Positions 4,431-51,513 of a DNA stretch of 64,000 nucleotides are shown here, one piece after another. A model generated the notes under the pieces. That model was not told the origin of the DNA. It saw only the letters and a program-made list of their open reading frames with translations, and did no database searches. The stretch is from Candidatus Dojkabacteria bacterium. GTDB lineage: Bacteria > Patescibacteriota > Dojkabacteria > GCA-002793355. The stretch covers positions 479,007 through 543,006 of the forward strand of contig CP129470.1 of NCBI GenBank assembly GCA_030583685.1, read 5' to 3'. The position numbers were made by a program, and so were the translations under genes. The first letter of the stretch is position 1. Each line of letters begins with the position of its first letter.

Positions 4431-5738
4431 ATGGTACTACAGCGAGTTGCATTGTTAGATATCCCACAACAACAAGGTGTTATCGTCTGTCATACGCAAA
4501 CAATAGATGCGTTGTTCCGTGTGGCAGTTGTGCCTAAGCAAGTACAGCGTTTATTAGCACTATTGCCGATTTCCCCTTATACCTTGAAACTTCAGAAAAA
4601 GAGTCTTCTTTATGAGCTTTCTGCAATTACGGGGGATGAGTATATATATGTCAGACTTCCGCGAAACAAGCAAGAACGAGAATATTGTACAACCCTAGAA
4701 AAAGCTGAATTGTGGGAAGTTACCGAGGATGAATACGCAATGCTTGTCGACGTGACAGGAGAGAAGGTAGTTTTCTCAGGGGGAACACAAGAGGAGCAGG
4801 CAGCCTTTCTTGCACTTTGGGAGGAAGCTGGTCGGGAACCGTCCTGGATCAAGAAAAGTATGGCTATTTTGAGCGAAGGAGTACTTGGATTGCAATATAA
4901 AACTCGAGCTGGAGCGGTAAAATATCCTTTTCCTTTATTCCGCGCTCACTTTTTAAGTGTCTTTGCGGGGACAAAAAAGCAAGCGATGGAGATGATTTTC
5001 GAACGCCTTCGACAACGATATGTGTCGGAACGAAATAATCAAAAGGTTCCGCAAGGTATAGTGGTTACTCCTAACCTCGATCATCTGCGACTCCTCTTTG
5101 CAGAGAAGGATGAAATCTTTCAACAGGTGTACCAGTCTTCATTCTTACAAACACCAGACGGATTTCCTCCCTTAATTCAGTATGGACGTGCCTCACTTGG
5201 GTATCAGCCACAGGAGCAGATTACGGGAATTGAGTTGTTTATGCAGTTGATAAATAAAATAGGTAGTGAGTCTCTCCCCTACACGATATACTTAGTCGGA
5301 GGGTTTGGAAATATTCCCTACAAAACTCGAGATTATTTCATTTCAATATATCCAGAGTTGGCAAACAATTTTGTCGGAATTAGCACACCACCGTTCGGAT
5401 TTCTCGAAAAAAAAGATATACTCGATACTATTGCCAAGGATATTGAGCAGAAAAAACCAGATATTATCTTTGCAGGAATGACTTCTCCGACGCAGGAGCG
5501 TTTTATTCAGGAACTTATTACACGAAAGGTTAATTTCGGAATTGGGCTCTGTGTTGGCCGTACTATCGAAATGGTTGCCGGTTACCAGAAAAAAGAGCCT
5601 TCGCTTATCGAAAAACTTCATTTGTCGTGGATATATCGCTTGTTCTTCGGAGGCGAAAAACACATTATGCAACGTCAGAGGAAGCGAGTCTATTTAGACC
5701 TTAAGTTCGTGTGGGAGACACTCTTCTCTTCTCGGTAA
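4431..5738 (+). CDS. WecB/TagA/CpsF-family glycosyltransferase with a ~190-aa N-terminal extension of unknown function.
   Basis: The C-terminal half (VVTPNLDHL...PDGFPP...YLVGG...KPDIIFAGMTSPTQE) matches the TagA/WecG family pattern. Confidence 0.6.
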   Translation: MVLQRVALLDIPQQQGVIVCHTQTIDALFRVAVVPKQVQRLLALLPISPYTLKLQKKSLLYELSAITGDEYIYVRLPRNKQEREYCTTLEKAELWEVTEDEYAMLVDVTGEKVVFSGGTQEEQAAFLALWEEAGREPSWIKKSMAILSEGVLGLQYKTRAGAVKYPFPLFRAHFLSVFAGTKKQAMEMIFERLRQRYVSERNNQKVPQGIVVTPNLDHLRLLFAEKDEIFQQVYQSSFLQTPDGFPPLIQYGRASLGYQPQEQITGIELFMQLINKIGSESLPYTIYLVGGFGNIPYKTRDYFISIYPELANNFVGISTPPFGFLEKKDILDTIAKDIEQKKPDIIFAGMTSPTQERFIQELITRKVNFGIGLCVGRTIEMVAGYQKKEPSLIEKLHLSWIYRLFFGGEKHIMQRQRKRVYLDLKFVWETLFSSR

Positions 5739-6057
5739 GCAGGTACTTCTTCGACTTGTTCTGTGTTAAAGGAATGTACGGCGATGTTATGCTTCGAAAT
5801 TTACAAAAAGCTCCGCCCCATCAAGTATACGGCTGAAAAATGATTCGTCAATCATAATCCATCCACGGCAGAGATAGCAGGTGAAATATCTGTGAAACAA
5901 ATCTCTTTCTTCTCTAAACCAACAATATACTCAAAAATACAGGTGATAGTCATAGCAACTCTTTTTACCCACAGTCGTGAAATACCTGTAAAACAAATCA
6001 CCTAAGGCAACAATACAAACAGTTTAAAAAGTGAATAACTACTGAGTCGAGGAATGT

Positions 6058-6990
6058 TTATGTTGTTAGTTCTTTTGCCATCGCTTCTACCGCAATCGCT
6101 GCTTCTGATCCAGCGGTAAGGAGTTGTGCAAATTTGTTCGAGGCGGTTGTGCTATCCCCTGCTGCATAGATACCGGGCACAGAGGTTTCTTGTTCTTCAG
6201 TGACGATAATATATCCCCCTTCATCGGTCTTTATTCCCAATGCATCGGTAAACACGGTGTTTGGCTCGTGTCCAATTTCAATAAATGCGCCCTGAACAGG
6301 AAGCGTTTTCAATTCGGGGTTGTTTGTGTGAATTTCGGTGAGGGCATCGGTTCCAACGAATTTAGTCACGCTTGTTTTGTAGTGAATGGTAATGGCAGGA
6401 TGCGACAGAAGTTTGTCAACCCAATATTGCTCTGCTCGAAGTTTGTCTCCACGAACAAGGAGGTGAATGTTAGGGCAAATATCTGCAAGATATAACGCTG
6501 CAGTCACTGCTGAGTCTCCACCACCAATGACGGCAACGTCTTTTTCTTTGTAAAAGAATCCGTCGCAGGTTGCGCAGTAAGTAACACCTTTTCCGTAAAA
6601 CTCCTGTTCTCCGGGAACGTGAAGCTTCTTTCTGACGACACCTATGGTTAACAGCACTTTCTTTGCATGAATTTTTGTTCCTTCGCGAGAATACAGGACG
6701 AAACGTTCTTCCTGCTTTTCAACCTTCTCGATTCTTTCGTATAACTCTTCGACACCCAATTTAATAGATTGTTGTTGGACTTTTTGCATCAATTCCATGC
6801 CGGTGATTTCCTCAAAGCCAGGATAGTTACCGATTATATGTGCCTCTGCCGTTTGACCTCCAAACATTTCCCCAATTATGAGTGTTTTTAAACCATATCG
6901 AGCTGCATAAATCGCGCCAGAATACCCCGCAAAGCCCATACCTACAATAACGATGTCGTATACTTTCTCCATAGCACGGTATTGTAGCAT
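6058..6990 (-). CDS. trxB: Thioredoxin-disulfide reductase.
   Basis: FAD GxGxxG at the N-terminus. Redox-active CATCDG. NADPH site GGGDSA. 310 aa. Confidence 0.9.
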   Translation of the reverse strand: MLQYRAMEKVYDIVIVGMGFAGYSGAIYAARYGLKTLIIGEMFGGQTAEAHIIGNYPGFEEITGMELMQKVQQQSIKLGVEELYERIEKVEKQEERFVLYSREGTKIHAKKVLLTIGVVRKKLHVPGEQEFYGKGVTYCATCDGFFYKEKDVAVIGGGDSAVTAALYLADICPNIHLLVRGDKLRAEQYWVDKLLSHPAITIHYKTSVTKFVGTDALTEIHTNNPELKTLPVQGAFIEIGHEPNTVFTDALGIKTDEGGYIIVTEEQETSVPGIYAAGDSTTASNKFAQLLTAGSEAAIAVEAMAKELTT

Positions 6991-7060
6991 CTCTTGAAAA
7001 AGGGAGCGCTGAATGGCGTGTATTATTCTTTAAGAATCTACGGTTTTTTACAGGAAATCG

Positions 7061-7068
7061 TGTATAAT
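7061..7068 (+). promoter_or_regulatory. Extended -10 box TGTATAAT, 8 nt upstream of the ftsK ATG (leaderless-type promoter).
   Basis: TGnTATAAT consensus. The same arrangement recurs at the ligase, uvrA, uvrB, uvrC, aspS, murB and PEGA gene starts. Confidence 0.45.
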
Positions 7069-7076
7069 GACGAGAT

Positions 7077-9398
7077 ATGGCGAAACGAGGTCGACCCGCA
7101 AAATCAAAAGAATTGACGATTAAAAGTAAAGAAACCCAAGCGTTTTTGGGGTTTGTGTTTGTTGCGGTTGGTGCCTCACTTTTTTTCAATAACTCGTTGC
7201 GTGGGGTTGTGCCGTTGTTTGTTCAGGCGAGCTTTGGGCAAACAACTTACGTTCTCGGCGCGATTGCGATAGTTATTGGATTGCGAATGATTAATGTAAA
7301 AACGCATATTACGAGCGACCGCTTTCTTGCAGGGTTACTGCTCTTGTTATTTGCGACACTTCCACTGTTTTCTGCAATTGCAGACAAAGGTGATACGTCT
7401 TTATCATATTCAGAAGCGATTCAAGCAAAGGGTGGTGGTTCCATTGGAGCAGCAATTCATCAGTGGTTACAAAGTATTTTAGGAAGACCAGCTGAAATCG
7501 GTGTATTGTGGGCAACGTTACTGTTGTCCGTCTCTGTTATTAGTGGCTTATCTTTGGAACAAGCGGGAGAGTTGTTAACCTCCTTACTCAATTTTATCGG
7601 AAGGCTTTTTTCTGCACTCTTCTCTGCGTTGACGGGAAAACCATCCCCCGCTTCTGCTGCTGAGCAAAAATTGGAGATCGTCAATAAAAGTACTCTCGGG
7701 AAGAAAGGCTTGGCCGATGATTCACGCGAATTAGATCTTGAAAACACATTAAACCCCCATATTAAAGAGTTAGATGTAGCGGAGGTAGAACTACCAGAAC
7801 TTGGTGCGGACGCAGGTCCAAAAAAACAAGGTGAGCCAAAGATTACCATGAGCTTCGGTTCCGATCTCCGAGGAGGTGGTGGCGAGAGCGGAGACAACGA
7901 CACCCTGCAAGTATCCGATCTTGAGCAGGAATTTCAGCGACGTTATGCTCCTCGTTTTTCAAAATGGAAACAGTTCCCGCTTTCTCTCCTGACCGCCCCA
8001 GAGGCTGATCCTGTTGAAGAAGGCGATTTAATTCAAAAAAGTAAGAAAATTGAAGAAACATTAGCGAGTTTTAAAATTCAGGCTAAGGTGGCGAAAGTGT
8101 ATGTTGGTCCCTCTGTTCTTCAGTTCGCACTAAATCTTGCGGTAGGAACGCAATTTTCGAGAGTTCAAGCACGAGCTCAAGATATTGGAATTGCCTTGTC
8201 AGCAGATAAGGTTCGTATCGAAACGATTGGGGGAACCTCTCTCGTTGGCGTTGAAGTCCCGCGTAAAATTGGTCGAATTGTTCGTGCAAGTGAACTCCTC
8301 TCTTCCTCAGAAATGTCTCGTGAAGTAAAAAAACTACCTCTCGCTATTGGTGCAGATATTCGTAATGAATTAACCGTTGTAGATTTAACCTCTATGCCTC
8401 ACCTGTTAGTTGCTGGTGCGACAGGAACCGGTAAATCGGCGGCAATCAATACGATACTTGTTGGCTTGTTGTCCAAATTTACGCCTGATGAGTTACGGCT
8501 TATTTTGGTCGATCCAAAGCAAGTGGAGATGACTTTGTACAACGACATTCCCTATCTTCTGACACCCGCAATTGATGATATGGCAAAAGTCGTTCCCGTT
8601 TTAGATTGGGCAATTGCAGAAATGATGAAACGTTTGGCACTATTTCGCGACAGTACAGTAAGAAACATCGATGAATTTAATAGCAAGTCAACATTTAAAA
8701 TCCCACACATTGTAATCGTCGTCGACGAAATGGCAGACTTGATTTTGCAGAAAAAAGGAGAAGTTGAGACAAAGATTGTTCGTTTGTCTCAGCTCGCTCG
8801 GGCTACCGGTATTCATCTGATTCTTGCAACACAGCGACCAAGCGTTGCCGTAATTACAGGGCTCATTAAGGCAAACATTCCTGCACGTATTTCACTTGCC
8901 GTTACCTCTGGAATAGATTCTCGCGTTATTATCGACCAACAAGGTGCGGAAACCTTGATTGGTAAAGGTGATATGTTACTCAAAACACCGGATAATTCCA
9001 AAATTAAGCGATTACAAGGTGCGTTTGTGAGTACTAAAGAAGTAAGCGAAGTGACGAATTTCATCAAAAAGCAAGCTTTGGAACTTGATCCTGACGGGGA
9101 TTGGTATATACCCGAAATAGAAAACTTTGCAGGTGCAAATGTTGCTACAGGTGATTTGGGTGACTCTGAGTCAGAAATTAGACAGGATCCGCTGTTTCGC
9201 AAAGCAGTTGAATTAGTAATTCAGCATCGCAAAGGATCTTCCTCCTCCCTGCAACGATACCTAAAAATTGGCTTTACTCGTGCCGCTCGATACATCGACT
9301 TAATGGAGCAAATTGGGGTTGTAGCGGCATCAGAAGGAAGTAAGCCCCGTGAAGTTTTAGTATCAGATATATCAGAAGTCGAAGCATTTGATAATTAA
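7077..9398 (+). CDS. ftsK: DNA translocase FtsK/SpoIIIE.
   Basis: N-terminal TM segments. Walker A GATGTGKS. Walker B VIVVDEMADL. C-terminal gamma winged-helix (SSSLQRYLKIGFTRAARYIDLME). Confidence 0.9.
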   Translation: MAKRGRPAKSKELTIKSKETQAFLGFVFVAVGASLFFNNSLRGVVPLFVQASFGQTTYVLGAIAIVIGLRMINVKTHITSDRFLAGLLLLLFATLPLFSAIADKGDTSLSYSEAIQAKGGGSIGAAIHQWLQSILGRPAEIGVLWATLLLSVSVISGLSLEQAGELLTSLLNFIGRLFSALFSALTGKPSPASAAEQKLEIVNKSTLGKKGLADDSRELDLENTLNPHIKELDVAEVELPELGADAGPKKQGEPKITMSFGSDLRGGGGESGDNDTLQVSDLEQEFQRRYAPRFSKWKQFPLSLLTAPEADPVEEGDLIQKSKKIEETLASFKIQAKVAKVYVGPSVLQFALNLAVGTQFSRVQARAQDIGIALSADKVRIETIGGTSLVGVEVPRKIGRIVRASELLSSSEMSREVKKLPLAIGADIRNELTVVDLTSMPHLLVAGATGTGKSAAINTILVGLLSKFTPDELRLILVDPKQVEMTLYNDIPYLLTPAIDDMAKVVPVLDWAIAEMMKRLALFRDSTVRNIDEFNSKSTFKIPHIVIVVDEMADLILQKKGEVETKIVRLSQLARATGIHLILATQRPSVAVITGLIKANIPARISLAVTSGIDSRVIIDQQGAETLIGKGDMLLKTPDNSKIKRLQGAFVSTKEVSEVTNFIKKQALELDPDGDWYIPEIENFAGANVATGDLGDSESEIRQDPLFRKAVELVIQHRKGSSSSLQRYLKIGFTRAARYIDLMEQIGVVAASEGSKPREVLVSDISEVEAFDN

Positions 9399-10572: not shown

Positions 10573-12359
10573 ACGGACTTCGCCAGATATTTGTTCTTAA
10601 CGTTTACAATTTTCCTTAGAACTTTGTCTGGTTGGATGTACTGTTTCCACACTGAGGAAGTAGCAAGAAGGTAAACAATACCCGCAAGTATTCCTGTTAA
10701 TCCAGTAATCAGGACAACTCCTATCACCCGTGAACTATCAAAAAGCAGGTCCGTAATGCGGTAGGTTGTATACCCAACAATGAATGTAGCGATTCCGCCA
10801 AAGAGTGCCGTTTTAATCTGTTGCAAAGGAAGCACAACTTGTTTTGCATAGGCCCATAACTGTGTTTGGCGAGAGAGGAGCCAAAAACTCAAGGCAACTT
10901 CAAGGAACAAGCCGATTGAAATTCCAAAAGCGAGTCCAGCCACCGCTGCAAATGAATTGCCTCGCGTGAAAAACCAGCTCGCAATGAGCTGCCATGTTTC
11001 TAGACTCAGGAGTGAAGATGCAGTAAGCGCCATTATCTTGCTGGCGTGGGAGAAAAAATTGGTAAATAAGATGCTAAAGGTGATATTCGAAATAACACCA
11101 GTCAGGCTGATAAGAAGGGGAATTTTTGTATTGTTAAGTGCGTAAAATGTCCTAATATTGAGTGCTGCCATGGCTTGAAACAGAATGGCCGGCGTGAAAA
11201 AAGCAAGGGTAAAACTGGTCGCAATGGTTGCGGTCCAGTCGAAGCGCCCAGCCCCAAGAATTAATCGAACGATAGGCAATCGAAGCACGATGAATAAGAC
11301 TGCTATGGGAATTGCAACATAACAAAGAAGAACTAACGTCCGCCAGTATAATTTATTGAGTGATTGGTTGTTGTCCTGAGCTCGCTCGTGGGCCCGTTCA
11401 TTGAGACGAGGAAATATAACCTGCAAGAAACTACCGGAAATAAGATCGACTGGTACAAGGTAGAGGGTGCTGGCGTATTTGAATACGGAGAGTGCTCCTG
11501 TTCCCAAAGTAAACCCCCAAAACGTATTAAACATGATGGCAATCTGCTCAACTCCTAAGCCAAAAATCCGAGGGAGAGAAAGCTTTGCAATATCTTTGAC
11601 ATGCTGGTTGATTCCAAATGACCATGAAAAATCCTTTTCGTGAAGCCCCAGAATACCGATGAGCTGAGTAATAAAATGAAGCGCTGTTCCCAGTAATACA
11701 GCGTAACTTAACGCATAGATACCGAAATGTGGCGCAAACTTCACAAATAAAGTGATACCTAAGAGTATGCCGAGGTTATACATGAGTGGTGCAATGGCGG
11801 TACTGATAAATCTCTTGTGTGCCTGTAGATATGCGCCGAAAATACTACTCACTGACAATAACAGTGGCGAAACAAGCATAAGTCGGGACAGGTTCAAAAA
11901 TAGTTCTTGGTAATGTTCCTGATTTTCTTGGGTAAGCGCAGTAGCAAGGTCAAAGACCTTGAGCACTTCTTTGCTGGTAAAAACCCAGGTGGTAATTTGA
12001 GGCATGAAAATATAGATAATTCCGAGCAAAACGATCATCGTTCCAAAGAGGAGCGTAATAACGGTATTGAGTGTTGTATGGAGCACTTCAGGTTGATTCT
12101 TTTTAATAATTCTAATGAATATGGGGACAAGTGCTGCATTAACGGTGCCAACTACAAGCAAGGTAAACACCAAATCGGGTAACGCAAAGGCGGCAAAAAA
12201 GATATCACTTTCTTTACTTGTTGCGAATAACCGTGCGATGAAGTGAATTTTGAGGAACCCAAGAAGTTTACTGATGATTGAAATACTCGTAATAAATACG
12301 GAGATAAAGAGTATTTTGCTTTCCCAACGAATAATTTTTTCTCGCAATCTTCGGAACAT
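10569..12359 (-). CDS. murJ: Lipid II flippase MurJ/MviN.
   Basis: About 14 TM helices. N-terminal SKLLGFLK...DIFFAAFALPDL matches the MurJ signature. Confidence 0.75.
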   Translation of the reverse strand: MFRRLREKIIRWESKILFISVFITSISIISKLLGFLKIHFIARLFATSKESDIFFAAFALPDLVFTLLVVGTVNAALVPIFIRIIKKNQPEVLHTTLNTVITLLFGTMIVLLGIIYIFMPQITTWVFTSKEVLKVFDLATALTQENQEHYQELFLNLSRLMLVSPLLLSVSSIFGAYLQAHKRFISTAIAPLMYNLGILLGITLFVKFAPHFGIYALSYAVLLGTALHFITQLIGILGLHEKDFSWSFGINQHVKDIAKLSLPRIFGLGVEQIAIMFNTFWGFTLGTGALSVFKYASTLYLVPVDLISGSFLQVIFPRLNERAHERAQDNNQSLNKLYWRTLVLLCYVAIPIAVLFIVLRLPIVRLILGAGRFDWTATIATSFTLAFFTPAILFQAMAALNIRTFYALNNTKIPLLISLTGVISNITFSILFTNFFSHASKIMALTASSLLSLETWQLIASWFFTRGNSFAAVAGLAFGISIGLFLEVALSFWLLSRQTQLWAYAKQVVLPLQQIKTALFGGIATFIVGYTTYRITDLLFDSSRVIGVVLITGLTGILAGIVYLLATSSVWKQYIQPDKVLRKIVNVKNKYLAKSV

Positions 12360-12361
12360 TA

Positions 12362-12506
12362 TTCAGACAGTTTCAATATAAGCGTAGAATCCGGAACGGT
12401 GGAAAATCTGCTCAACACATAGGTGAGACCGCCAAAACTAAGAAAACTGGCAAGAAGCAGGATTACGACTGCGGCATAGATGATGATGCGGTCTGGTTTT
12501 TTAGTC
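12362..12506 (-). CDS. Possible small (48 aa) single-TM membrane protein. Its stop overlaps the murJ start (TAATG).
   Basis: Short ORF MTKKPDRIIIYAAVVILLLASFLSF... fits between the nuclease and murJ. Weak support. Confidence 0.25.
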
Positions 12507-12539
12507 ATTACGTTGTCATTATATAGTACTTGCCGATCG

Positions 12540-13169
12540 TTAGTAAGACTGGAAAAGATACAATCGTTCCGAAATTGCCTGTTGTTGAGCTTCATAAAAA
12601 TCTGGCTGGTAGGCGACATTGGGTGGAATGGTCAGCAATTGTGCGAGTCCAAGTCTAATCAATGCATGATTAACAAATATGCCGTCTTCTGTATAGACAT
12701 AGCGAAGCAGTCTTCCATATTTGTCAGTATCCTGAGAATCGGCGAGAAGATAAACGGTTTTGTCTGAAACAAGATATTCGTTGAGTCGTTGCGCCTCCAG
12801 TGCAAAAGGGTCATGGTTTTGAGCCTCTGAGCGATCTATTTCCGGGGTGTCAATGCCGATATAGCGAACTGCTGCCTCGTCTCCATTTGCCCGAGTAACG
12901 CGAATGGTGTCGCCATCAACTATGCGTGTTACAACAACTTTTTCGTACTGTTCGCTGGGAAAAGGTTCTTTTGCGTACTTCACTTGAAACGTTTTTTGCA
13001 ATGTCTCGTATTCACGGACATAAGCGGGCTGTTGTGAAATATCAGGTGGGGCAATATTGCTATTGGCGCTGGAGATCAAGTACACGGCAAAAACAATAAA
13101 AGCCAGAAATTCAAGAATTTTGAGGGGACGAAGCGTAATAAATTTTCCTATTGATATTTCTTGAGACAT
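12540..13169 (-). CDS. Thermonuclease (staphylococcal nuclease, SNase) family protein, membrane-anchored.
   Basis: SNase motifs VVTRIVDGDTIRV, GIDTPE and DKYGRLLRYVY. N-terminal signal-anchor. The start was taken at MSQEIS to avoid overlap with sufS. Confidence 0.7.
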   Translation of the reverse strand: MSQEISIGKFITLRPLKILEFLAFIVFAVYLISSANSNIAPPDISQQPAYVREYETLQKTFQVKYAKEPFPSEQYEKVVVTRIVDGDTIRVTRANGDEAAVRYIGIDTPEIDRSEAQNHDPFALEAQRLNEYLVSDKTVYLLADSQDTDKYGRLLRYVYTEDGIFVNHALIRLGLAQLLTIPPNVAYQPDFYEAQQQAISERLYLFQSY

Positions 13170-14332
13170 GCCCTGAGTTGTTCGATACAAAAGTTAACTT
13201 CTTCTTCTGTCGTGAGAAATGATGCAGAAATGCGAGTTGTTGGTCCATAACCAGCGTCAAGGTGAAGTGGTTCTGCACAATGAAATCCAGCGCGTACAGC
13301 AATTCCCTGTTCGTCAAGAAATGACGCGATGTCGTGAGGATGAATTGTTTTGTGTGAGAAGGAATATATAGGAAGATCGTGTGGTTTGTTGTCTCCAAGA
13401 AGTGAAATGTCTGAGAAATGTGACAGTTTTTGTTGAAGAAGAGACGAGATCTCCTTTTCGGCTTGTTGAATATGGGAGAACCCAAGCTCAGTGATAAAAG
13501 AAAGAGCAGCAGAGAGTCCAATAATGCCAGTCACATGGGGAGTGCCGGCTTCAAACGCTTCCTCCGAAGACTTAAAGGTTGTTTCTGTTGTTGAAACATG
13601 GGTAACACTACCTCCGCCCACTATCATCGGTTTTTGTCCTTGCAGGTACTTTTTCTTGGCAATCAGGACGCCGATTCCCTCTGGTCCATAGAGTTTATGA
13701 CCAGAAAACGCGAGAAAGTCTACCGGAGTTTCTGAAAGATTGAGCGGGATGTGTGCAATAGTTTGCGTTGCATCGAGAACGGTGATGCTCTCATTCTTTT
13801 CTGCGTAATCTGAGATTCGCTTCAATGAAAGTACTTGGCCGGTGACATTTGAGCCATGAGTAATCGCAAGGAGAGCCTTTCGAAGTGTGGGAAGTATGTC
13901 AAAAGAAAAAACTCCATTTTCAGTTTTGAGGAGTTGAATTTTTTTGTGAGGGAGTCGCTTCCAGGGGAGGAAATTTGAGTGGTGTTCAAGTGTTGTTGTG
14001 AGTATTGTGGAGAAATCAAGGTTGCGAACGAGATGTGCAGCAAGGTTAAGGGCTTCGGTTGCACTTTTGGTAAAAATAACAGCGTAGGTTTGTGAACTTG
14101 CGTGAACGAAAGAAAGAATCGCCTGTCTCGTGTTTTCAATCGCTTGCTGTGCCTCGAAACTGAGCGCGTGCGTACTTCTGCCTGGGTTACCTGTCCCTTG
14201 CTCGAGGTGTCGTATCATCGCGTTAATGACGGAACGTGGCTTTGGTGTGGTTGCTGAGTAATCAAAATAGGTTACGGGACGGGAAGCAATGTTGCGAGAA
14301 AAAAGGGGAAATTGTTCTCTCAAAGTATTCAT
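13148..14332 (-). CDS. sufS: Cysteine desulfurase (SufS/NifS class-V aminotransferase).
   Basis: PLP-lysine SGHKLYGPEGIGVL. Active-site VRAGFHCAEPL (the SufS RAGHHCA motif). 394 aa. Confidence 0.85.
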   Translation of the reverse strand: MNTLREQFPLFSRNIASRPVTYFDYSATTPKPRSVINAMIRHLEQGTGNPGRSTHALSFEAQQAIENTRQAILSFVHASSQTYAVIFTKSATEALNLAAHLVRNLDFSTILTTTLEHHSNFLPWKRLPHKKIQLLKTENGVFSFDILPTLRKALLAITHGSNVTGQVLSLKRISDYAEKNESITVLDATQTIAHIPLNLSETPVDFLAFSGHKLYGPEGIGVLIAKKKYLQGQKPMIVGGGSVTHVSTTETTFKSSEEAFEAGTPHVTGIIGLSAALSFITELGFSHIQQAEKEISSLLQQKLSHFSDISLLGDNKPHDLPIYSFSHKTIHPHDIASFLDEQGIAVRAGFHCAEPLHLDAGYGPTTRISASFLTTEEEVNFCIEQLRACLKKYQ

Positions 14333-15915: not shown

Positions 15916-18900
15916 CTATTTTTCAATCGTAACCGAGAGTTTTGTTTTCTCTGGGCCAACATCGCCACTGTACGTTGCCGTTTCTGATAGGCCTTGCGTT
16001 ATGGTAAGTTTCGTGAGTAAGGTCGCTTTCTTCAGCTGCTCTTGGTACTTTTCAACAACAGAAGAAAGCGTGGTATCTTCCGTTCCCAGTGACACTGTCA
16101 CGTGCTGGCCAAGTTCTAATTGTGCCTGTTTTCTTGCTGCTTGAATTGCTCTGGTAATTTCTCGCACCAATCCCTGTTCTGCAAGTTCTGGGGTAATTTT
16201 TATATCTAAACCGACTGAATACTGCTGCTCCTGTTTCACTTTGAGCGAATCGGATTCAGTGAGTGACGCAACAAAGCGAGCTGTTTGAACGTTTAGTTCG
16301 TCTGCAATAAGCGTGTTGTAATCAGTTCCAAGATCATTTTCTGATGTATAAGATACAGAGGAAAGAGGCTGTTTGAGAGGAATACCTTGTTCAACCCGAA
16401 TACTTTGCCCAAGTGATACAATTTTTCTTGTCTTCTCCATAGTTTCAAGTAACTTGATTTCCTCTTGAGTGAGTTCAGAAACTGTTGGAAAGTTCTCCAA
16501 ATGAACAGATTCTTTTTGTTCATCTTCTGGGAGTGCTTTTTTCAGCTCTTGGTGGAGGTATTCAGTAATGAAAGGAATGATTGGCGCAAATGCTTTTGTT
16601 ACTAAAAGTAACACCGCAAACAAGGTATTGAGTGCATCTCCATCACCTGAAACAAAACGGTCTCGGGAGCGTCGAATATACCAAGTTGAGATGTCATCAA
16701 TGAGCGGTTTCAACTCGGCAATCGACTTGGGGATGAGATAGGCGTCAAGATTTTTTTGAACTGACAATATCGCCGACGTTGCTCTTGTTAATACCCAGGT
16801 ATCAAGTAATTGTGATGGTTTCCAGGTCTTGTCGTAGGAGAACCCGTGTTGATTCGCGTAAAGGGTGAAGTACTTAAACGTGTTCATAAGTGGCAACAGA
16901 ATCTCCTTTGCTGGGGCACCAATTGCATCTTCGGATACATTCAAATCTTCTCCAATTGGCAAGACGCTTCCCGCGATGTAGAGTCGGAATGAGTCCCCCC
17001 CATGCTTTTCGATTGTTCCGCGTGGGTCTGGATAATTTCCAAGGCTTTTACTCATCTTTCGACCATCAGTTCCATTGATTGTTCCCGTACAGACGACATT
17101 TTTAAACGCATTCGTTCCAAACAATATGGTTGAAACAACGTGCATGACATTAAACCAAGCGCGAGTTTGCCCAACATATTCGGTGATAAAGTCTCCAGGG
17201 AAATTTTGTTCGAATTTTTCCTTATTCTCAAAGGGATAGTGGAATTGGGCAAAAGGCATCGAAGCAGATTCAAGCCAGCAATCGACCACCTCTGGAACAC
17301 GCTTCATCATTCCTGTCTCACATTCTGAGCAAGAGTAGGTGTGCTCATCAATATATGGACGATGTAAATTAGTCACTTTTTTACCCGACTTTTCTTCGAT
17401 TTCTGCGATTGACCCAAGGACATCGCGGTGATCACATGCGTCACATTCCCAGATAGGGAGCGGAGTTGCCCAATAGCGTGTTCTCGAAATTCCCCAATCA
17501 GGGAAAGTTTTGATAGCGTCTTCAAATCTTCCGTGCTTAATATGCTCAGGAATCCAGTTGATATTCTCATTGTTTTTGTACAGTTGGTCTTTGACTGCTT
17601 GAATGTTGACATACCAAGAATCCTGCGCTTTGTACACGAGTGGGGTGCTACAGCGATAGCAAACGGGGTAGCTATGTGTGATTCGTTCTTCTTTCCAAAG
17701 AAGCCCTCGTTCTTTGAGAGCAGCAGAAATTGTAGGGTCTGCTTGTTTGAAATAGATGCCCGCATAGTCAGTGACTTCGGGGATAAATTTTCCTTCCTCA
17801 TCGATAGTCTCGTGCATTGAAAGGCCGATGGTTTTTCCAAGTGCCGTATCGTCTTCTCCAAATCCTGGAGCCATGTGGATAACGCCTGTTCCATCAGATG
17901 TACTAACGAAATCGGCAGCATAAATACGAAAATCTTTCTCACCGGCAGGGAAATAGGAGAAAAGTGGCGCATAAGTATTTCCCACAAGCTCCTTTCCCAG
18001 GTAGGTGTCTTCGATTCGATACTCTTTTCCTTCGAGAACCTGTTCAATGAGATCTTCTGCGAGAATGAGATACTCACCGTCAACAAGACACGTTGCATAG
18101 GTTGCTTTTTCGTCAACCACAAGGGCTGCGTTTGCAGGGAGTGTCCATGGCGTTGTGGTCCATGCGAGAACTGACACAGGAGGCTTGGTGATTGAGGGCT
18201 CTCCGTGAGGAATTTGGCGTGGTTCCTGGGACAACACGTCTTTAAGCGTGTTCTTTGTCGGAATATGAATATTGTCCCAGGGGATGTCTTCGGGTTTTAC
18301 CCAATTAAGTTCAGAATCCATATCTCCCTCCGTATCGACGACACGTGGTGTTCCCGAAACCTTTACTTTAAAGTGATGTGTTTTAAAAAGGCGCCCTTCA
18401 AAAATATCTATATTAAAGCCGTAATAGGTGAGTTCCGTAACCTCACAATCAATCTCTTCTTTAACTTCCCGTCTGACGGTGTTTTCAAGATTTTTCTCAT
18501 CAACGTCTTCATATTTTCCGCCAACAATTCCCATGACTTGGGCTCGGCCTTCTTTGATTCTGCGGATCATCAGAATTTCGCCTTTCTCGTTTTCAACGAC
18601 AACACCGGCACCAACTCCGGTTTTATAATAGTTCACAGGGAATTTTACGAAGACAGACGGATCTTCTAGCTCCCGGTACGAATTATCCATGGCAATTTCA
18701 AAGTTCGAGAGAGGCGTTCCACAACGAGTGCAGTATAACGAGACACGCTTTCCTTTATAAACCAATTCCTTTTCGTAAAATTGTTTAAAAACCCAGATAA
18801 CTGATTCCATGTAATTGAGGTCCATGGTTCGATACGGTTTACTCATGTCTACCCAGCGTGCGATACGGTCGATGTACCATTCCCACTCACCTGACACATC

Positions 18901-19290
18901 CGAAACATAGGTTTCACAAGCATCAATAAAGGCTTGTATGCCAACTTTATTTTCAATATCTCGGCGGTTTTTTGTATTAAATTGTCGCTCAACTTTTTCT
19001 TCAACGGGAATACCGTGACAATCCCAACCCCATACTCGTTCTACGCGTTTGCCACGCATCGTGTGATAGCGAGGAACAATATCTTTTAACACACTGGCGA
19101 GTAGGTGGCCATAATGGGGAAGTCCCGTCACAAAAGGAGGTCCGTCATAAAAAACAAAATGATTTTTTTCAGGTCGTTGCTCAATTGACTTCTCAAAAAT
19201 TCGATTCTTTTTCCAAGTTTCTAAGATTGGTTGTTCGACATCGTGATAAAACGAGCGAATATTTGGTGGTGAGAAGTGTGTTTTTGCCAT
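15916..19290 (-). CDS. ileS: Isoleucyl-tRNA synthetase with an internal Nudix-like insertion.
   Basis: HIGH motif PHYGHLL. KMSKS. WTTTPWTLPAN CP1 editing-domain signature. 1124 aa. Residues ~220-365 form an extra Nudix-like domain. Confidence 0.95.
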   Translation of the reverse strand: MAKTHFSPPNIRSFYHDVEQPILETWKKNRIFEKSIEQRPEKNHFVFYDGPPFVTGLPHYGHLLASVLKDIVPRYHTMRGKRVERVWGWDCHGIPVEEKVERQFNTKNRRDIENKVGIQAFIDACETYVSDVSGEWEWYIDRIARWVDMSKPYRTMDLNYMESVIWVFKQFYEKELVYKGKRVSLYCTRCGTPLSNFEIAMDNSYRELEDPSVFVKFPVNYYKTGVGAGVVVENEKGEILMIRRIKEGRAQVMGIVGGKYEDVDEKNLENTVRREVKEEIDCEVTELTYYGFNIDIFEGRLFKTHHFKVKVSGTPRVVDTEGDMDSELNWVKPEDIPWDNIHIPTKNTLKDVLSQEPRQIPHGEPSITKPPVSVLAWTTTPWTLPANAALVVDEKATYATCLVDGEYLILAEDLIEQVLEGKEYRIEDTYLGKELVGNTYAPLFSYFPAGEKDFRIYAADFVSTSDGTGVIHMAPGFGEDDTALGKTIGLSMHETIDEEGKFIPEVTDYAGIYFKQADPTISAALKERGLLWKEERITHSYPVCYRCSTPLVYKAQDSWYVNIQAVKDQLYKNNENINWIPEHIKHGRFEDAIKTFPDWGISRTRYWATPLPIWECDACDHRDVLGSIAEIEEKSGKKVTNLHRPYIDEHTYSCSECETGMMKRVPEVVDCWLESASMPFAQFHYPFENKEKFEQNFPGDFITEYVGQTRAWFNVMHVVSTILFGTNAFKNVVCTGTINGTDGRKMSKSLGNYPDPRGTIEKHGGDSFRLYIAGSVLPIGEDLNVSEDAIGAPAKEILLPLMNTFKYFTLYANQHGFSYDKTWKPSQLLDTWVLTRATSAILSVQKNLDAYLIPKSIAELKPLIDDISTWYIRRSRDRFVSGDGDALNTLFAVLLLVTKAFAPIIPFITEYLHQELKKALPEDEQKESVHLENFPTVSELTQEEIKLLETMEKTRKIVSLGQSIRVEQGIPLKQPLSSVSYTSENDLGTDYNTLIADELNVQTARFVASLTESDSLKVKQEQQYSVGLDIKITPELAEQGLVREITRAIQAARKQAQLELGQHVTVSLGTEDTTLSSVVEKYQEQLKKATLLTKLTITQGLSETATYSGDVGPEKTKLSVTIEK

Positions 19291-19343: not shown

Positions 19344-21164
19344 ATGACGTTTTCTCAAGTGACAGCACTCTTTTCCGCAATCGAACAAACACCAAAACGA
19401 TTGGAAATGCAGGAATTACTTCGTGCTTTTTATGCAAAGAGTGATCCTCGCAACGCAGCAATTGCAACGTATTTATTGATTGGGAGAATTGTTCCCGAAT
19501 TTGTCGCAGTCGAGTTCCAACTTTCAGATAAAAGCTTGCGAGCGGTGGTTGAGCGATTACTTTCTCGAGATATTCGTGAGGATCTCAGCTCTCTGGGAGA
19601 TGTTGGTTCAGTCTGGGAAAAGTATGGAGAAAGCGTTCCCACGTCAGGAGAACTTTTGGAAATTTATGGAAAGCTTTGGGAGATTTCACAAACAACAGGA
19701 ACTGGCTCCCAGCAGAAAAAACAGCAGTTGCTCGAGGAATTGCTCAAACAGAACGATACAATCACGGGAAAATATCTGTTACGAATAATCAATGGAAAGT
19801 TGCGGTTAGGTGCAAGCGAGAGAACGGTTTTGGAGGCACTCGGTAAGTTGTCGGGGCAGAATCTTCAAGAACTAAAACAGCTTTTTGCCAACACCAGCGA
19901 TATTGGACATACGGTCTTTGTGACGTTACAGTATGGTGCCGATGCCTTGTCTCATGGAAGCTTTACTCCCGGTGTCCCTATCGCTGCGAAACTTGTTGAG
20001 CGAGAGGATTCAATAGAAGCAATTTACGAGAGAATTCCAGAACCAATTCTTGAGCCAAAATATGATGGTTTACGATTGCAACTACACATAACATCAAATG
20101 AAACAGTGACGTATCCAGAAAGAATTTGGGCAGAATATCAGGAACGATATAGTCGAGTTTCTGCTTCAGAAGAAATGACGCTGTTTAAGGTTGAATCACC
20201 GACGGCTGAGGAATATAGAGTGTTTTTGTATTCGCGTAATTTAGAGGACATGAGTGCAATGTTTCCAGAAGTAACGAGTGCGGCGAAAAAGCTGCCTGAA
20301 CAGTATGAAAAGAAGTTTGGTGTCAGACCATCATCGCTGGTCTTGGATGGAGAAGTCATAGGATACAACGACATTATTCAGGAATATCTTCCGTTTCAGC
20401 AGACGATGACACGTAAGCGAAAGCATGGGGTTGCCGGGGCTGCTTCCGAGGTGCCGGTAAAAGTATTTGTGTTTGATTTTCTCTTGAAAGACCACGAGTC
20501 CTATCTGGATAAACCGCTGCGAGAGAGAAAACAGGAACTCTCCTTTCTTGATGAGCACACTGAAATTCAATCCGTTATAGTCAAAACACCGTTACATACG
20601 GGACTTACTGTCCAGCAAGCTGAAGAGCAATTTTTAACCTATGTGTCTGAAGGACTGGAGGGCGTTATTTTTAAGGAACTGAACTCGATATATACACCGG
20701 GGACAAGAAACTTTGACTGGCTGAAGTACAAAAAGGCGATGAAGAAAGACTTGGCTGATACGGTTGATGTTGTCCTACTGGGCTATTATCGCGGGGAAGG
20801 AAAGTTAGCGCAGTTTGGAATAGGGGCCTTACTGGCGGGAGTTTACGATCCTGAGACCGACACCTACACGACAGTAACGAAAATTGGTACGGGAGTGACC
20901 CATGAACAGTGGCAACAGATTAAAACTGCCTGTGATGCGGTTAAGTCAGAGAAAATGCTCGATACCGTTGAAATTCCAAAAGCATTATTACCCGATGTTC
21001 TCCTTATCCCAGAACTCGTTGTTGAAGTGGAGGCTGATGAAATTACCAAGAGCCCGCTTCATAGCTCGGGCTATGCATTGCGTTTTCCGCGATTCAAGCG
21101 TTTCCGCGAAAAACGCGCCAATCAAGCTACGACAAAACAGGAGCTTGTGACGCTCTGTAAATGA
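19344..21164 (+). CDS. ATP-dependent DNA ligase (archaeal/eukaryal LigI-type).
   Basis: Adenylation motif I EPKYDGLRLQLH (KxDG). OB-fold region. N-terminal DNA-binding domain. 606 aa. Extended -10 TGTATAAT at 19331-19338. Confidence 0.85.
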   Translation: MTFSQVTALFSAIEQTPKRLEMQELLRAFYAKSDPRNAAIATYLLIGRIVPEFVAVEFQLSDKSLRAVVERLLSRDIREDLSSLGDVGSVWEKYGESVPTSGELLEIYGKLWEISQTTGTGSQQKKQQLLEELLKQNDTITGKYLLRIINGKLRLGASERTVLEALGKLSGQNLQELKQLFANTSDIGHTVFVTLQYGADALSHGSFTPGVPIAAKLVEREDSIEAIYERIPEPILEPKYDGLRLQLHITSNETVTYPERIWAEYQERYSRVSASEEMTLFKVESPTAEEYRVFLYSRNLEDMSAMFPEVTSAAKKLPEQYEKKFGVRPSSLVLDGEVIGYNDIIQEYLPFQQTMTRKRKHGVAGAASEVPVKVFVFDFLLKDHESYLDKPLRERKQELSFLDEHTEIQSVIVKTPLHTGLTVQQAEEQFLTYVSEGLEGVIFKELNSIYTPGTRNFDWLKYKKAMKKDLADTVDVVLLGYYRGEGKLAQFGIGALLAGVYDPETDTYTTVTKIGTGVTHEQWQQIKTACDAVKSEKMLDTVEIPKALLPDVLLIPELVVEVEADEITKSPLHSSGYALRFPRFKRFREKRANQATTKQELVTLCK

Positions 21165-29941: not shown

Positions 29942-30649
29942 TTAAAACCCATCGGCGATTCCGCAATCTTCGTTGAAGGTGAGGTCTTGCTGTTGTTGAT
30001 AGTCTGCAATTGGCTTTAATTCAAACGTGTCGTAGCGATCTTTGTGTTGTTTTAGTTCTTCTGCTGTTGCCCAGAAGTTCCTTTGATAAGGGGTTTCTTC
30101 AATCAGGTTGCCAGATATTCCCGTAACTAAGTGACGATAAAAGATAACATCTTGAACGGTTTCTTCTTCACGGGTACGTATTTTTCGGAAGATTGAAAGG
30201 AGCTTCACTGACGTAGCGGTTAATCCAGATTCTTCATACAGCTCGCGAAGTGAGGCATCTACAAGTGTTTCTCCAAAGCGAATTTTTCCTGTAATAAGTC
30301 CGATTTTTCCAAAATAGGGATGACGAAGGCGTTTGTTAACGAGATATTCATCTTTTCCGTCTTCACGTGTTCGTGCAACGACCAAAAGTACAGAACTTTT
30401 GGGTTGTTTCTCAACGATGTCAACGGTATCGTCCATGAGGTTTCCGTAATCTTTTCCTTGATCGGAAAGTGAATATCCTGCGTCTGACTTGTTAATAAAG
30501 CCAATATCAAGAAGCTTCTGTAAGTGATAATTCATGTGCTCGCTTTCAAGACCTGCAATCAATAACTGATTGAAGCGAAGAGGTTCACTCGCGACGATCA
30601 ATTTTTTGAGAAGGTCTTTTTGATAATAATGTAGTTTTATTGTTTCCAT
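29942..30649 (-). CDS. Nudix hydrolase with an N-terminal winged-helix domain.
   Basis: Perfect Nudix box GKIRFGETLVDASLRELYEESGL (Gx5Ex7REUxEExGU). N-terminal HTH-like ~70 aa. Confidence 0.75.
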   Translation of the reverse strand: METIKLHYYQKDLLKKLIVASEPLRFNQLLIAGLESEHMNYHLQKLLDIGFINKSDAGYSLSDQGKDYGNLMDDTVDIVEKQPKSSVLLVVARTREDGKDEYLVNKRLRHPYFGKIGLITGKIRFGETLVDASLRELYEESGLTATSVKLLSIFRKIRTREEETVQDVIFYRHLVTGISGNLIEETPYQRNFWATAEELKQHKDRYDTFELKPIADYQQQQDLTFNEDCGIADGF

Positions 30650-30762
30650 ACGGTATTGTTACCTATTTACCGCAGAAATCAACTGAAAAGAATTTTAGTT
30701 GTGAGCATATGCAGAAAAGTGCCTTGTTTGCTCTCAAGGCGCGAAAGCATTATAATTCCCCT

Positions 30763-32565
30763 ATGGAACGAACAATTTCTTCAGGTCTTGCAGCACTCGT
30801 TGGTCAACAAGCGAGAGTGGAAGGCTGGTATCACAATCTACGAGAACTTGGTAAGGTCGGCTTTTTGGTGCTTCGTGATCGAGATGGACTTGTCCAAGTG
30901 GTTATTGACAAGAAAGAGACAATAAAAGAACTAGCAAAACTTCAGCCGGGAACAGTTATTCGAGCTATTGGAACGGTTAAAGAAACAACCGCAACAGATA
31001 TTGGCGTCGAATTGGTTTCTCCTGAAATCGAAGTGCTCGTACCAATTACAGAAGTGAGTCCTGTCTCCTATAACAAGAAATCTCTTGATGTGAATATCGA
31101 TACAGAACTTGATTTTCGGCCGTTAGTGCTGAGAAATCTCAAGAAACAGGCAATATTCAAAGTGCAAGCAAAGATTCTTCAAGCGTTTGCCGATTCCTTA
31201 CGAAATCAAGGATTTATGGAATTTCGTACTCCAATTTTGATGCATGCACCTTCAGAAAGCGGTGCGAGTGTCTTTGAGGTGAATTATTTCGAGGGAAAGG
31301 CATATTTGGCGCAATCTCCGCAGGTGTACAAGCAGATTATGGTTGGCGTATTTGAGCGAGCATTTACCATAACGCCTGTTTTTCGTGCAGAAAAGCACAA
31401 TACGACGCGTCACATTATGGAATTAACGCAAATGGATGCAGAAATGGGATTCATCGAAAGCTATCACGAAATTATGGCAGTTGCTGAAAAGACAATAAGA
31501 GATATTATTGCTACCGTTGTCGCGGAATATGCACAGGTATTTCAAGAATATGGAGTTGCCTTGCCACAAGTACCAGAAAAACCATTTCCAAAAATAAAAG
31601 TAAAGGAAGCACTCGCTGTTATTGAAGCACGAACAGGGAAAAGTGCTGTCAGAGAAGAGTTAGATCTCGACCCGGAGGATGAACGAGAAATGAGTAAATG
31701 GGCCCTTGAAGAGCATGGATCTGACTTCCTTTGGGTTATCAACTTTAAAGCAAATAAGAATTTTTACACCTGGGATGATCCACAAAATGCTGATGAATCA
31801 CTCTGTTTTGATTTAGAGTTCCGCGGATTAGAAATGCTTTCGGGAACGCATCGTATTCACTTGCATGAGCAACTTCTTGAGCGGTTTAAGAAGGAAGGGT
31901 TGACAGAAGAACATTATGAGCATTATTTTCAAGCATTTAAGTACGGCATGCCTTCTGAAGGTGGGTTTTCTTTTGGACTTGAGCGGCTCACGATGAAACT
32001 ATTTGAATTGAAGAATATTCGTGAAGCAACCCTCTTCCCCGCAGACTTAAAGAGAATTGCAGGAGCAAATAGAATTAAAGAAAAAGTCGTTGGCGAGCAT
32101 GCCGTTGTCGAGAAAATTAAGAAATTGTTGGACTCACGCGCGATTAAGTATCACTTTGAGGAACATGAAGCGGTACGAACCAGTGAAGAAGCCGCCGCAT
32201 TACGGGGGACTTCGCTTTCTAGCGGTGCTAAAGCGTTGATTCTTGTGGGAAAAAAGACAGGAAATCACGCTATGGTGGTAATTCCAGGCGATAAGAAACT
32301 TGCGCTTTCGGCGGTAACAGAAAAAATTGGCGAAAAAATGGAATTTGAAAAACCAGAGACAATTCTCGCTGAGTATGGGATTAAAGTGGGGGGAGTCCCT
32401 CCTTTTGGGAATCTTCTCGGAATGAGACTGTTAATGGATACCGGTGTTGCTAAAAATTCACAGATTTCCTTTAATGCAGGCAAGCAAACGTGTTCCATTC
32501 ACATGTCAGGGAAAGATTTAGCAGAAGTAACTGACGCAGAAGTTGGGGAATTTGCACAAAGGTAG
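30763..32565 (+). CDS. aspS: Archaeal-type class IIb Asp(Asn)-tRNA synthetase fused to a C-terminal ProX/YbaK-like deacylase domain.
   Basis: OB anticodon-binding N-terminus. Motif-2 region FRTPIL...LAQSPQVYKQ. Motif 3 GGFSFGLERLTM...FP. C-terminal ~170 aa with GAKALILVG...GGVPPFG (YbaK/ProX). TATAAT at 30751-30756 precedes the ATG at 30763. Confidence 0.8.
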   Translation: MERTISSGLAALVGQQARVEGWYHNLRELGKVGFLVLRDRDGLVQVVIDKKETIKELAKLQPGTVIRAIGTVKETTATDIGVELVSPEIEVLVPITEVSPVSYNKKSLDVNIDTELDFRPLVLRNLKKQAIFKVQAKILQAFADSLRNQGFMEFRTPILMHAPSESGASVFEVNYFEGKAYLAQSPQVYKQIMVGVFERAFTITPVFRAEKHNTTRHIMELTQMDAEMGFIESYHEIMAVAEKTIRDIIATVVAEYAQVFQEYGVALPQVPEKPFPKIKVKEALAVIEARTGKSAVREELDLDPEDEREMSKWALEEHGSDFLWVINFKANKNFYTWDDPQNADESLCFDLEFRGLEMLSGTHRIHLHEQLLERFKKEGLTEEHYEHYFQAFKYGMPSEGGFSFGLERLTMKLFELKNIREATLFPADLKRIAGANRIKEKVVGEHAVVEKIKKLLDSRAIKYHFEEHEAVRTSEEAAALRGTSLSSGAKALILVGKKTGNHAMVVIPGDKKLALSAVTEKIGEKMEFEKPETILAEYGIKVGGVPPFGNLLGMRLLMDTGVAKNSQISFNAGKQTCSIHMSGKDLAEVTDAEVGEFAQR

Positions 32566-50863: not shown

Positions 50864-50949
50864 AAGCAGTATGATAGCACAAAAAGGACAGTTCAGGTGA
50901 AGTTTGCGTTACTTTGTGCTATAATACACCTGTCTCGACCACACTTTCG

Positions 50950-51371
50950 GGGGTGATCGGCTTAGACGGTTGTTCGTTGAAAGAAGAAGCCAAGCGGGCT
51001 GATATCCCGTACTCCTATCAAAGCACATAAAGTGCCAAACAAACCCTTTCTGCAAAAATTGCTAACGCACTTAACAGCGTCGTTGCGGCTTTCAGCCGTC
51101 CCGCAGCTGCTTTGAACGTTATGCAAATTGCATAAGTCATTGCGACTTTCCTTAGTGTCCCTCCTTTGCCTGACAAGCGGACAATAAGGAGTAATAAAGT
51201 TCAGGCCGACGTATTCTCGAGCTCCTCTGTGAGAATACTGTTGTATACGTGAGGGCGAGTGTTACTTTTTTGCCTCGGTTTTAGGTGACACTTCGTATAT
51301 AATCAAGGCTGTCTTGGGAGAATCTTCTTTTAGAAAACAGCTGCACAGGGGTTCGATTCCCCTCACCTCCA
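50950..51371 (+). ncRNA. ssrA: tmRNA (ssrA).
   Basis: 5' GGGGGUGAUCGGCUUAGACGG. 3' T-arm GGGGUUCGAUUCCCC. Acceptor GGGGGUG/CACCUCC with a G3:U70 wobble (Ala identity). Discriminator A. Internal ORF with Ala-rich tag candidates. Extended -10 TGCTATAAT at 50917-50925. Confidence 0.85.
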
Positions 51372-51513
51372 TTTTGGAAATTTACGGTGCAACCGTAGAT
51401 TTTCAAAATAGAACAGAGAATCGAACCGTAGGTTCTCTTGCGAATTCCTTGCTTATGCGATTTTCGAATGAGCAATACAAAGCCCGATAAAGTTTCAATG
51501 TATCCGAAGTATT

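Follow-up and report, generated by a model that had tools for sequence, protein, structure and literature searches.

An aminoacyl-tRNA deacylase domain of the INS superfamily fused to aspartyl-tRNA synthetase in Candidatus Dojkabacteria

The gene described here is located on the + strand, at 30763..32565, of a stretch of 64,000 nucleotides from a Candidatus Dojkabacteria bacterium (assembly GCA_030583685.1, contig CP129470.1, positions 479,007 to 543,006 of the forward strand); the whole stretch is referred to below as the window. Its probable coding sequence, delimited by reference to the starts of homologues, comprises 600 aa plus stop and encodes an aspartyl-tRNA synthetase (AspRS) continued at the C-terminus by an aminoacyl-tRNA deacylase domain of the INS superfamily. 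A preliminary description of the window, based on its letters alone, had proposed this fusion; it is confirmed here as real, and not an artefact of assembly. In the fusion a known editing fold is combined with a synthetase partner that is both new and unexpected; the protein does not form a category of its own, nor is it rare in sequence databases. The role tentatively favoured for the domain is that of a tethered module which would remove wrong amino acids, possibly similar to Ser or Thr, from the tRNAs handled by AspRS.

A continuous gene for a three-domain protein

An uninterrupted open reading frame (ORF) extends over 30640..32565 of the + strand, and contains 641 aa when counted from its first TTG. 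Beside this TTG at 30640, from which the frame is open, an ATG at 30709, selected by another gene caller, and the ATG at 30763 may serve as starts. The latter is the likely true one, because homologues, 599-603 aa in length, begin with M-x-R-x-x-S at the equivalent of ORF residue M42. A perfect TATAAT box (30751-30756) is found 7 nt upstream of this ATG, and inspection of the start region revealed no Shine-Dalgarno sequence before it; this combination suggests that the mRNA of the fusion gene may be leaderless, or nearly so.

The DNA around the junction, at 32030-32110, reads LFPADLKRIAGANRIKEKVVGEH, and neither a stop nor a frameshift occurs across the boundary between the AspRS and the editing portion. 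The same three-domain architecture, with a size of about 599 aa, is present in about 60 of the 120 best database homologues, which are 42-75% identical, come from independent assemblies and have source names including Candidatus Dojkabacteria and Doudnabacteria. The nearest relative (75%) belongs to Patescibacteria BroJett019. As independent assemblies share the architecture, the fusion is neither a chance read-through nor a mis-join. The motifs from which it had originally been recognized, GGFSFGLERLTM, EATLFPADLKRI, GAKALILVGKK, GGVPPFGNL and FNAGK, were all found in the protein.

The synthetase half and the linker

Scanning of the window protein with Pfam models detected an N-terminal OB-fold anticodon-binding domain at 30814..31038, + strand (PF01336 tRNA_anti-codon, E = 1e-14, ORF residues 59-133), followed at 31096..32043, same strand, by the class IIb catalytic core of an archaeal-type AspRS (PF00152 tRNA-synt_2, E = 3e-75, residues 153-468). 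The NCBIfam model NF003483 (aspartate--tRNA(Asn) ligase, archaeal-type AspRS) gives 460 bits (cutoff 353), and TIGR00458 364 bits, just under its cutoff of 368; no match to the GAD domain was found in the Pfam and NCBIfam scans. By the NF003483 score, the two domains and the lack of GAD, the synthetase half is assigned to the archaeal/eukaryal-type AspRS, as previously suggested.

The anticodon-binding domain aligns to the non-discriminating (ND) enzyme AspRS2 of T. thermophilus (ND-AspRS2, 1n9w), its best PDB match, and to T. kodakarensis AspRS. Two positions, which we take to be diagnostic of non-discriminating archaeal-type enzymes, were evaluated: a His equivalent to T. kodakarensis W26 and a Pro equivalent to K85 of the anticodon-binding loop. 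The loop proline is reportedly needed, according to work of the Soll laboratory, for tRNAAsn recognition by archaeal-type ND-AspRS. At the first position the window protein has a His, which is also found in the ND-AspRS structures 1n9w and 1wyd and in 44 of 55 fusions. At the second position Asp is found in the window protein and Asp or Glu across the fusions, the Pro being absent. T. thermophilus AspRS2 resembles the window protein in its His, but differs in having the loop proline and in lacking an editing domain. The database homologues with the fused architecture are annotated by NCBI simply as aspartate--tRNA(Asn) ligase and by JGI as nondiscriminating aspartyl-tRNA synthetase, and the editing domain is unmentioned.

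The two halves are connected by a linker of about 15 residues (32044..32094, + strand), conserved but flexible, whose motif DLKRIAGxxIxxxxxxG is kept in 28 fusions. The full-length AlphaFold2 (AF2) model consists of two confident halves, with a pLDDT below 50 at linker residues 430-438 and a pTM of 0.68. Both values indicate that the linker would act as a flexible tether between AspRS and the editing domain.

Identity of the editing domain

The C-terminal domain, of 155 aa, is encoded at 32095..32562 (+ strand) and was classified on the basis of PF04073, of AF2 and Foldseek comparisons and of profile scores. The Pfam model PF04073 (tRNA_edit), suggested as a test in the preliminary description, matches ORF residues 509-629 with an E-value of 1.2e-22 and 80.7 bits, well above its gathering score of 25.5. 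The INS superfamily is defined by a catalytic Lys and a GXXXP loop (PMC11286415). Both are present: the Lys, within GAKALIL, is encoded at 32230..32232 (+ strand) and corresponds to K62 of the domain and K490 of the 600-aa protein; the loop (GGVPP, then FG) is encoded at 32389..32403 (+ strand), and its G115 and P119 are invariant. The AF2 model of the isolated domain has a pLDDT of 90.7. Its best Foldseek match is 1wdv (TM 0.80/0.91, rmsd 1.5 A), and all 37 of the 37 significant PDB matches (E<=0.001) have the INS/YbaK fold; they include free-standing INS-family proteins, designs on the 2cx5 scaffold, INS domains of prolyl-tRNA synthetase (ProRS) and SadB-type proteins. By Pfam score, residues and fold alike, the domain belongs to the INS superfamily.

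Conservation is not limited to the defining residues. A His within an EHE motif, encoded at 32164..32166 (+ strand; H40 of the domain, H468 of the protein), is invariant in both alignments of fusions (A1 and A2) and is kept in 119 of 122 stand-alone relatives, while K62 is invariant in all fusions and in all relatives aligned. Across 28 fusions, the invariant residues, in the numbering of the 600-aa protein, are H468, K490, G543, P547, G549, D559 and F570, so that the catalytic Lys, whose conservation had been indicated as a point to check, and the GXXXP loop are retained without exception. In domain numbering, H40, K62, G115, P119, D131, F142, N143, G145 and S150 show little or no variation across the fusions, and these nine positions are common to the fused domains, the 122 stand-alone relatives and E. 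coli YeaK. The signature is kept although full-length fusions diverge to 42% identity, a pattern showing catalytic motifs that are intact and under long-term purifying selection. The domain might alternatively be a non-catalytic appendage, which only raises the affinity for tRNA or mediates the formation of complexes, since appended synthetase domains often bind tRNA, as does the C-terminal domain of plant ProXp-ala; the invariance of the Lys, of the GXXXP loop and of the rest of the signature in very divergent fusions makes a mere binding module very improbable.

Within the superfamily, known members were ranked by using a profile built from 24 fused domains. The highest scores were obtained for Legionella lpg1207 (3op6; 74-75 bits) and for E. 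coli YeaK, that is, ProXp-ST1 (73 bits), followed by APE2540 (1wdv, 57 bits), ProXp-x (2cx5, 52 bits), YbaK of E. coli and H. influenzae (2dxa and 1dbu, 45-51 bits) and ProXp-ala (1vki 47.6 bits, 5vxb 29 bits). Comparison by hhalign to E. coli YeaK, described in RefSeq for MG1655 as a 'mischarged aminoacyl-tRNA deacylase', gave a probability of 98.9%; the identity to YeaK is only 27%. In a neighbour-joining tree of the domains, YeaK is nested within the stand-alone radiation that also gives rise to the fused domains. This nesting, the profile ranking and the shared positions identify the domain as YeaK/ProXp-ST1-like, a placement that applies among the references ranked above.

The original label, YbaK/ProX, thus holds at the level of the superfamily, and gives way to YeaK/ProXp-ST1 and lpg1207, which are nearer, at the level of the subfamily. 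A strict YbaK, deacylating Cys-tRNAPro, was rejected on the scores of TIGR00011 (62 bits, cutoff 153) and NF007951 (33 bits, cutoff 243), both below cutoff. ProXp-ala, the Ala-tRNAPro deacylase, was likewise rejected: 1vki and 5vxb score below YeaK and 3op6, and the equivalent of H130 is an Asn (FNAG), where the mapping of Cc H130 (FHP motif) onto this Asn is partly our assumption. An invariant Glu (E101, in FExP) was considered as a reader of the G73 discriminator and discarded, Ala being found there in bacterial-type fusions and in other AspRS-linked members.

Distribution and partner specificity

The spread of the fusion was evaluated by scanning GTDB, one genome per species, with a profile of the linker and editing domain. 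Among the best 80 of 112 relatives, at least 76 loci contain ORFs of about 600 aa which run upstream into AspRS. Going by record titles, about 15 of the 80 loci come from Dojkabacteria, Patescibacteria or 'Saccharibacteria' and 37 from Chlamydiota, among them Parachlamydiales, Rhabdochlamydiaceae and record HS-T3 of the Parachlamydiaceae; the labels Bdellovibrionota, Verrucomicrobiota and Pseudomonadota occur on a few others. In one chlamydial locus (L034, 6647-6747, - strand), ARAGORN reports, directly downstream of aspS::edit, a 101-nt 'tRNA-Pyl (CUA)'; this call may be spurious, or the gene may encode a suppressor-like tRNA of an unusual kind.

A wider, exhaustive HMM search, of 1.84 billion representatives, yielded 6873 matches, mostly stand-alone proteins of 150-170 aa; close stand-alone homologues of the domain are present in bacteria of the candidate phyla radiation (CPR), although the preliminary description had considered a lineage with few stand-alone proofreaders. 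Counting fragments, at least 24 AspRS fusions occur among the top 150 representatives at 50% identity, about 10 of archaeal and about 14 of bacterial type. In P0400 (744 aa) and P0387 (748 aa), a bacterial-type AspRS with GAD domain (NF001750, 815 and 706 bits) carries the editing domain at its C-terminus; P0363, P0386 and the Dojkabacteria locus L083 combine a C-terminal editing domain with a bacterial-type AspRS devoid of GAD. No synthetase partner other than AspRS was found among the top 150 representatives. The fusion had been called unusual, which is justified insofar as no description of it was found; given its frequency in GTDB and its occurrence on bacterial-type AspRS as well, it is not rare.

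The other architectures in the top 150 are tandem editing domains and two Peptidase_S11 fusions, and nothing else. Two to three tandem tRNA_edit domains are contained in P0393 (491 aa), P0372 (448 aa) and P0419 (303 aa), which cluster with lpg1207 (3op6) in the domain tree. In P0457 and P0458 the YeaK-like editing subfamily is N-terminal to a Peptidase_S11 DD-carboxypeptidase, and in locus L095 an S11 gene (12309-13391) directly follows a bacterial-type aspS::edit. NUDIX genes are also located near the latter.

Association with AspRS extends to unfused genes. Locus L093 has an archaeal-type aspS whose stop shares an ATGA with the start of a stand-alone homologue; the latter has 44% identity to the window domain, and a tRNA-Asn gene and asnS are at most 3 kb away. 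In the Dojkabacteria locus L066 a stand-alone homologue is divergent from a tRNA-Asn-aspS-asnS cluster, and in L021 a tRNA-Asn adjoins the stand-alone gene; in L092 a stand-alone homologue was found with no synthetase nearby. Taken together, the gene arrangements show a partnership with AspRS which is specific and recurrent, in three AspRS architectures.

Unfused AspRS from CPR bacteria often end with ...LFPSDLxRIAGQRIxK, corresponding to the start of the fusion linker, and not with the classical ...RDVERLTP. Such ends were observed in P0046, in P0053-P0076 and in others, as well as at 6001-7317 of L004, and have the appearance of remnants left by an editing domain since lost. When the AspRS cores were placed in a neighbour-joining tree, the enzymes ending in the stub were intermixed with the fusions, and were sister to those ending in ...RDVERLTP. 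Although this tree is only rough, both trees being neighbour-joining ones on short alignments, the intermixing suggests an old fusion, possibly followed by repeated losses of the domain.

Proposed role and alternatives

Ser- and Thr-tRNAs are hydrolysed by ProXp-ST1, whose specificity for the tRNA is broad and whose substrates include products of the lysyl-tRNA synthetase (LysRS), a sister class IIb enzyme (PMC11295145). The window domain is tentatively proposed to be a post-transfer editing module, dedicated by its tether to the tRNAs handled by AspRS and directed against errors with Ser- or Thr-like amino acids. AspRS would bind tRNAAsp, and possibly tRNAAsn, by its anticodon-binding domain and charge it; the tethered domain would then sample the aminoacylated 3' end, with the tRNA still held or just released, and would hydrolyse the ester, by means of the conserved Lys and GXXXP loop, whenever the attached residue is other than L-aspartate. 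The most likely targets would be near-cognate amino acids that are small and polar, for instance Ser or Thr, because the active-site signature matches that of E. coli YeaK. That the domain is catalytically active and acts on AspRS-bound tRNA, and the choice of substrate, are inferred. The editing in cis of tRNAAsp or tRNAAsn, proposed in the preliminary description, is accordingly plausible as a process, and is strengthened by the exclusive and recurrent partnership with AspRS; the nature of its substrate is a matter of inference.

Several points weigh against this proposal. We know of no AspRS that misacylates with Ser or Thr, nor, to our knowledge, is AspRS among the ten synthetases for which editing has been described. 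These ten are part of a total of 23 synthetases (2020 review, PMC7373986). An identity of 27% to YeaK is too low for a transfer of specificity. Many close AspRS relatives have lost the editing domain and retain the linker stub only, so that the domain is dispensable in some lineages. Finally, the proximity to asnS and tRNA-Asn would rather suggest a role related to tRNAAsn.

The last point leads to an explanation based on tRNA identity, to which we assign a low probability. A relaxed archaeal-type AspRS, confusing the anticodons GUU and GUC, would produce Asp-tRNAAsn, and the domain would hydrolyse it in organisms endowed with asparaginyl-tRNA synthetase (AsnRS). Such hydrolysis would be an alternative to transamidation by GatCAB, in organisms which make Asn-tRNAAsn directly with AsnRS. 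Dojkabacteria do encode AsnRS: in L004 asnS is directly upstream of an unfused aspS, and in the complete Dojkabacteria genome AP024679.1 (L012) it is located 0.5 kb downstream of aspS::edit. The notion that fusion-bearing genomes are devoid of AsnRS is contradicted by this complete genome. The clustering of aspS, the editing gene, tRNA-Asn and asnS in L066 and L093, the tRNA-Asn of L021 and the ND-like His at the W26-equivalent position also speak for this explanation, as does the presence of a YbaK-like domain on AsnRS itself. P0259, P0260 and P0263 (632-634 aa; P0260 corresponds to L008, 10001-11899) are AsnRS with an N-terminal tRNA_edit domain and a linker of about 45 aa. Because this domain is nearest to the true YbaK of E. 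coli and H. influenzae (2dxa, 2e-13), and shares no more than 31% identity with that of the window protein, the AsnRS fusion is, as judged by these comparisons, an independent event involving a different INS subfamily; both enzymes could make Asp-tRNAAsn. A further precedent is AspRS-GatC (NF009460), which demonstrates that modules acting on Asp-tRNAAsn can be located at the C-terminus of AspRS.

Against hydrolysis of Asp-tRNAAsn, the loop proline is replaced by Asp or Glu at the equivalent of K85, and the conserved active site is that of YeaK and has acquired no conserved basic residue able to bind a carboxylate. In classical Chlamydiaceae, moreover, Asp-tRNAAsn is an obligatory intermediate; its hydrolysis would be wasteful if the environmental Chlamydiota, which carry most of the fusions found here, also need it. 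The acceptor stem of tRNA-Asn, evaluated as a marker of the pathway, begins with U1-A72 in L066 and with G1-C72 in L093 and fails to discriminate. None of the genes for GatCAB, DTD, ProRS or a stand-alone INS paralogue was found within the 64-kb window. As a separate observation, L004 contains three class IIb synthetase genes within 9 kb (4612-7317 and 11954-13317), namely asnS, aspS and a probable lysS of 505 aa, with the genes for the alpha and beta subunits of glycyl-tRNA synthetase (GlyRS) just upstream.

It is more doubtful that the domain is a generic trans-editor merely anchored to AspRS, which would serve as an abundant tRNA-binding scaffold while the domain clears the Ser, Thr or Ala errors of other synthetases. 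ProXp-ST1's broad specificity for tRNA is in line with such a function, as are the stand-alone state of the majority of the family, in some cases with no nearby synthetase (L092), the flexible tether and the tolerance for repeated loss of the domain. Neutral anchoring should however give varied partners, yet AspRS, in three architectures, is the only synthetase found among the top 150 representatives; the translationally coupled aspS-edit gene pairs also argue against it.

Less probable still is a function in chiral proofreading, in which the domain would strip D-Asp from tRNAAsp, replacing or supplementing D-aminoacyl-tRNA deacylase. AspRS is one of a small number of synthetases for which transfer of a D-amino acid, namely D-Asp, has been demonstrated, and members of the subfamily are fused to, or adjoin, peptidoglycan DD-carboxypeptidases (P0457, P0458, L095). 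Selection by chirality is not known for any member of the INS superfamily, however, and the linkage to DD-carboxypeptidases, seen in a single locus and in two fusion representatives only, did not recur in about 90 further loci.

Other genes of the window

In its content the window resembles a CPR genome: the GC content is about 42%, and Mur ligases are encoded, as are the DNA ligase and the tmRNA described below. The gene divergent from the AspRS fusion (29942..30649, - strand) encodes a DUF7347 and a NUDIX domain. A second NUDIX domain (PF00293, 51.9 bits, residues 224-338) is contained in the isoleucyl-tRNA synthetase (IleRS; 1124 aa, 15916..19290, - strand), inside the catalytic domain, where it is inserted near the usual site of the CP1 editing domain; this arrangement is unusual, and the NUDIX domain might act on aminoacyl-adenylates or Ap4A. 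An ATP-dependent DNA ligase of the DNA_ligase_A family, typical of archaea and eukaryotes, is encoded at 19344..21164 (+ strand), and a tmRNA gene was detected at 50949-51374 (+ strand).

Relation to known systems and significance

The systems closest to the fusion each share a part of its features. E. coli YeaK has in common with the window domain the fold and the signature HEAV, RGTxLxxGAKAL, PPF and FNAGxxxxS, but is a single-domain trans factor of broad tRNA specificity, whereas the window domain is tethered to AspRS. Legionella lpg1207 (3op6, 75 bits) and Aeropyrum APE2540 (1wdv, TM 0.80/0.91) are the closest solved structures by sequence and by fold, respectively; unlike the window domain, both are stand-alone products of structural genomics, with no assigned function. 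The INS domain of ProRS and the protist ProXp-ala-ProRS resemble the fusion in that an INS editing domain is built into a class II synthetase against its own errors; there the partner is ProRS, the domain is inserted or N-terminal and the subfamily is Ala-specific, whereas here the partner is AspRS and the domain C-terminal. In AspRS-GatC a C-terminal module also acts on the aminoacyl end of AspRS-bound tRNA, but this module is a subunit of an amidotransferase that converts Asp-tRNAAsn, rather than a hydrolase; with NF009460 (cutoff 1379) the window protein reaches no more than 103 bits.

According to a 2024 review, fusions of the INS superfamily occur only with ProRS, as the inserted INS domain or the N-terminal ProXp-ala of protists, the other members being single-domain proteins. 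No description of a fusion between AspRS and an INS/YbaK domain was found in full-text literature searches or in a 2026 deacylase-mining paper.

The biological interest of the fusion lies in its partner. As far as we know, the accuracy of AspRS is considered sufficient without editing. The domain is nevertheless kept in the genomes of more than 75 species, drawn from CPR bacteria and from environmental chlamydiae, two lineages that are both host-associated and otherwise very unlike each other. This is a signal of the Rosetta-stone type, which would imply that AspRS makes a biologically relevant, as yet uncharacterised error. Should the error be one of tRNA identity, with Asp removed from tRNAAsn or, more generally, Asp/Asn cross-charging corrected, the domain would be the first hydrolytic proofreading of this kind, an outcome we hold to be rather unlikely; if it were true, AspRS would by extension be the physiological partner of free-standing YeaK/ProXp-ST1. 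More broadly, the fusion suggests AspRS as a candidate partner for these free-standing proteins, whose role in vivo is unclear.

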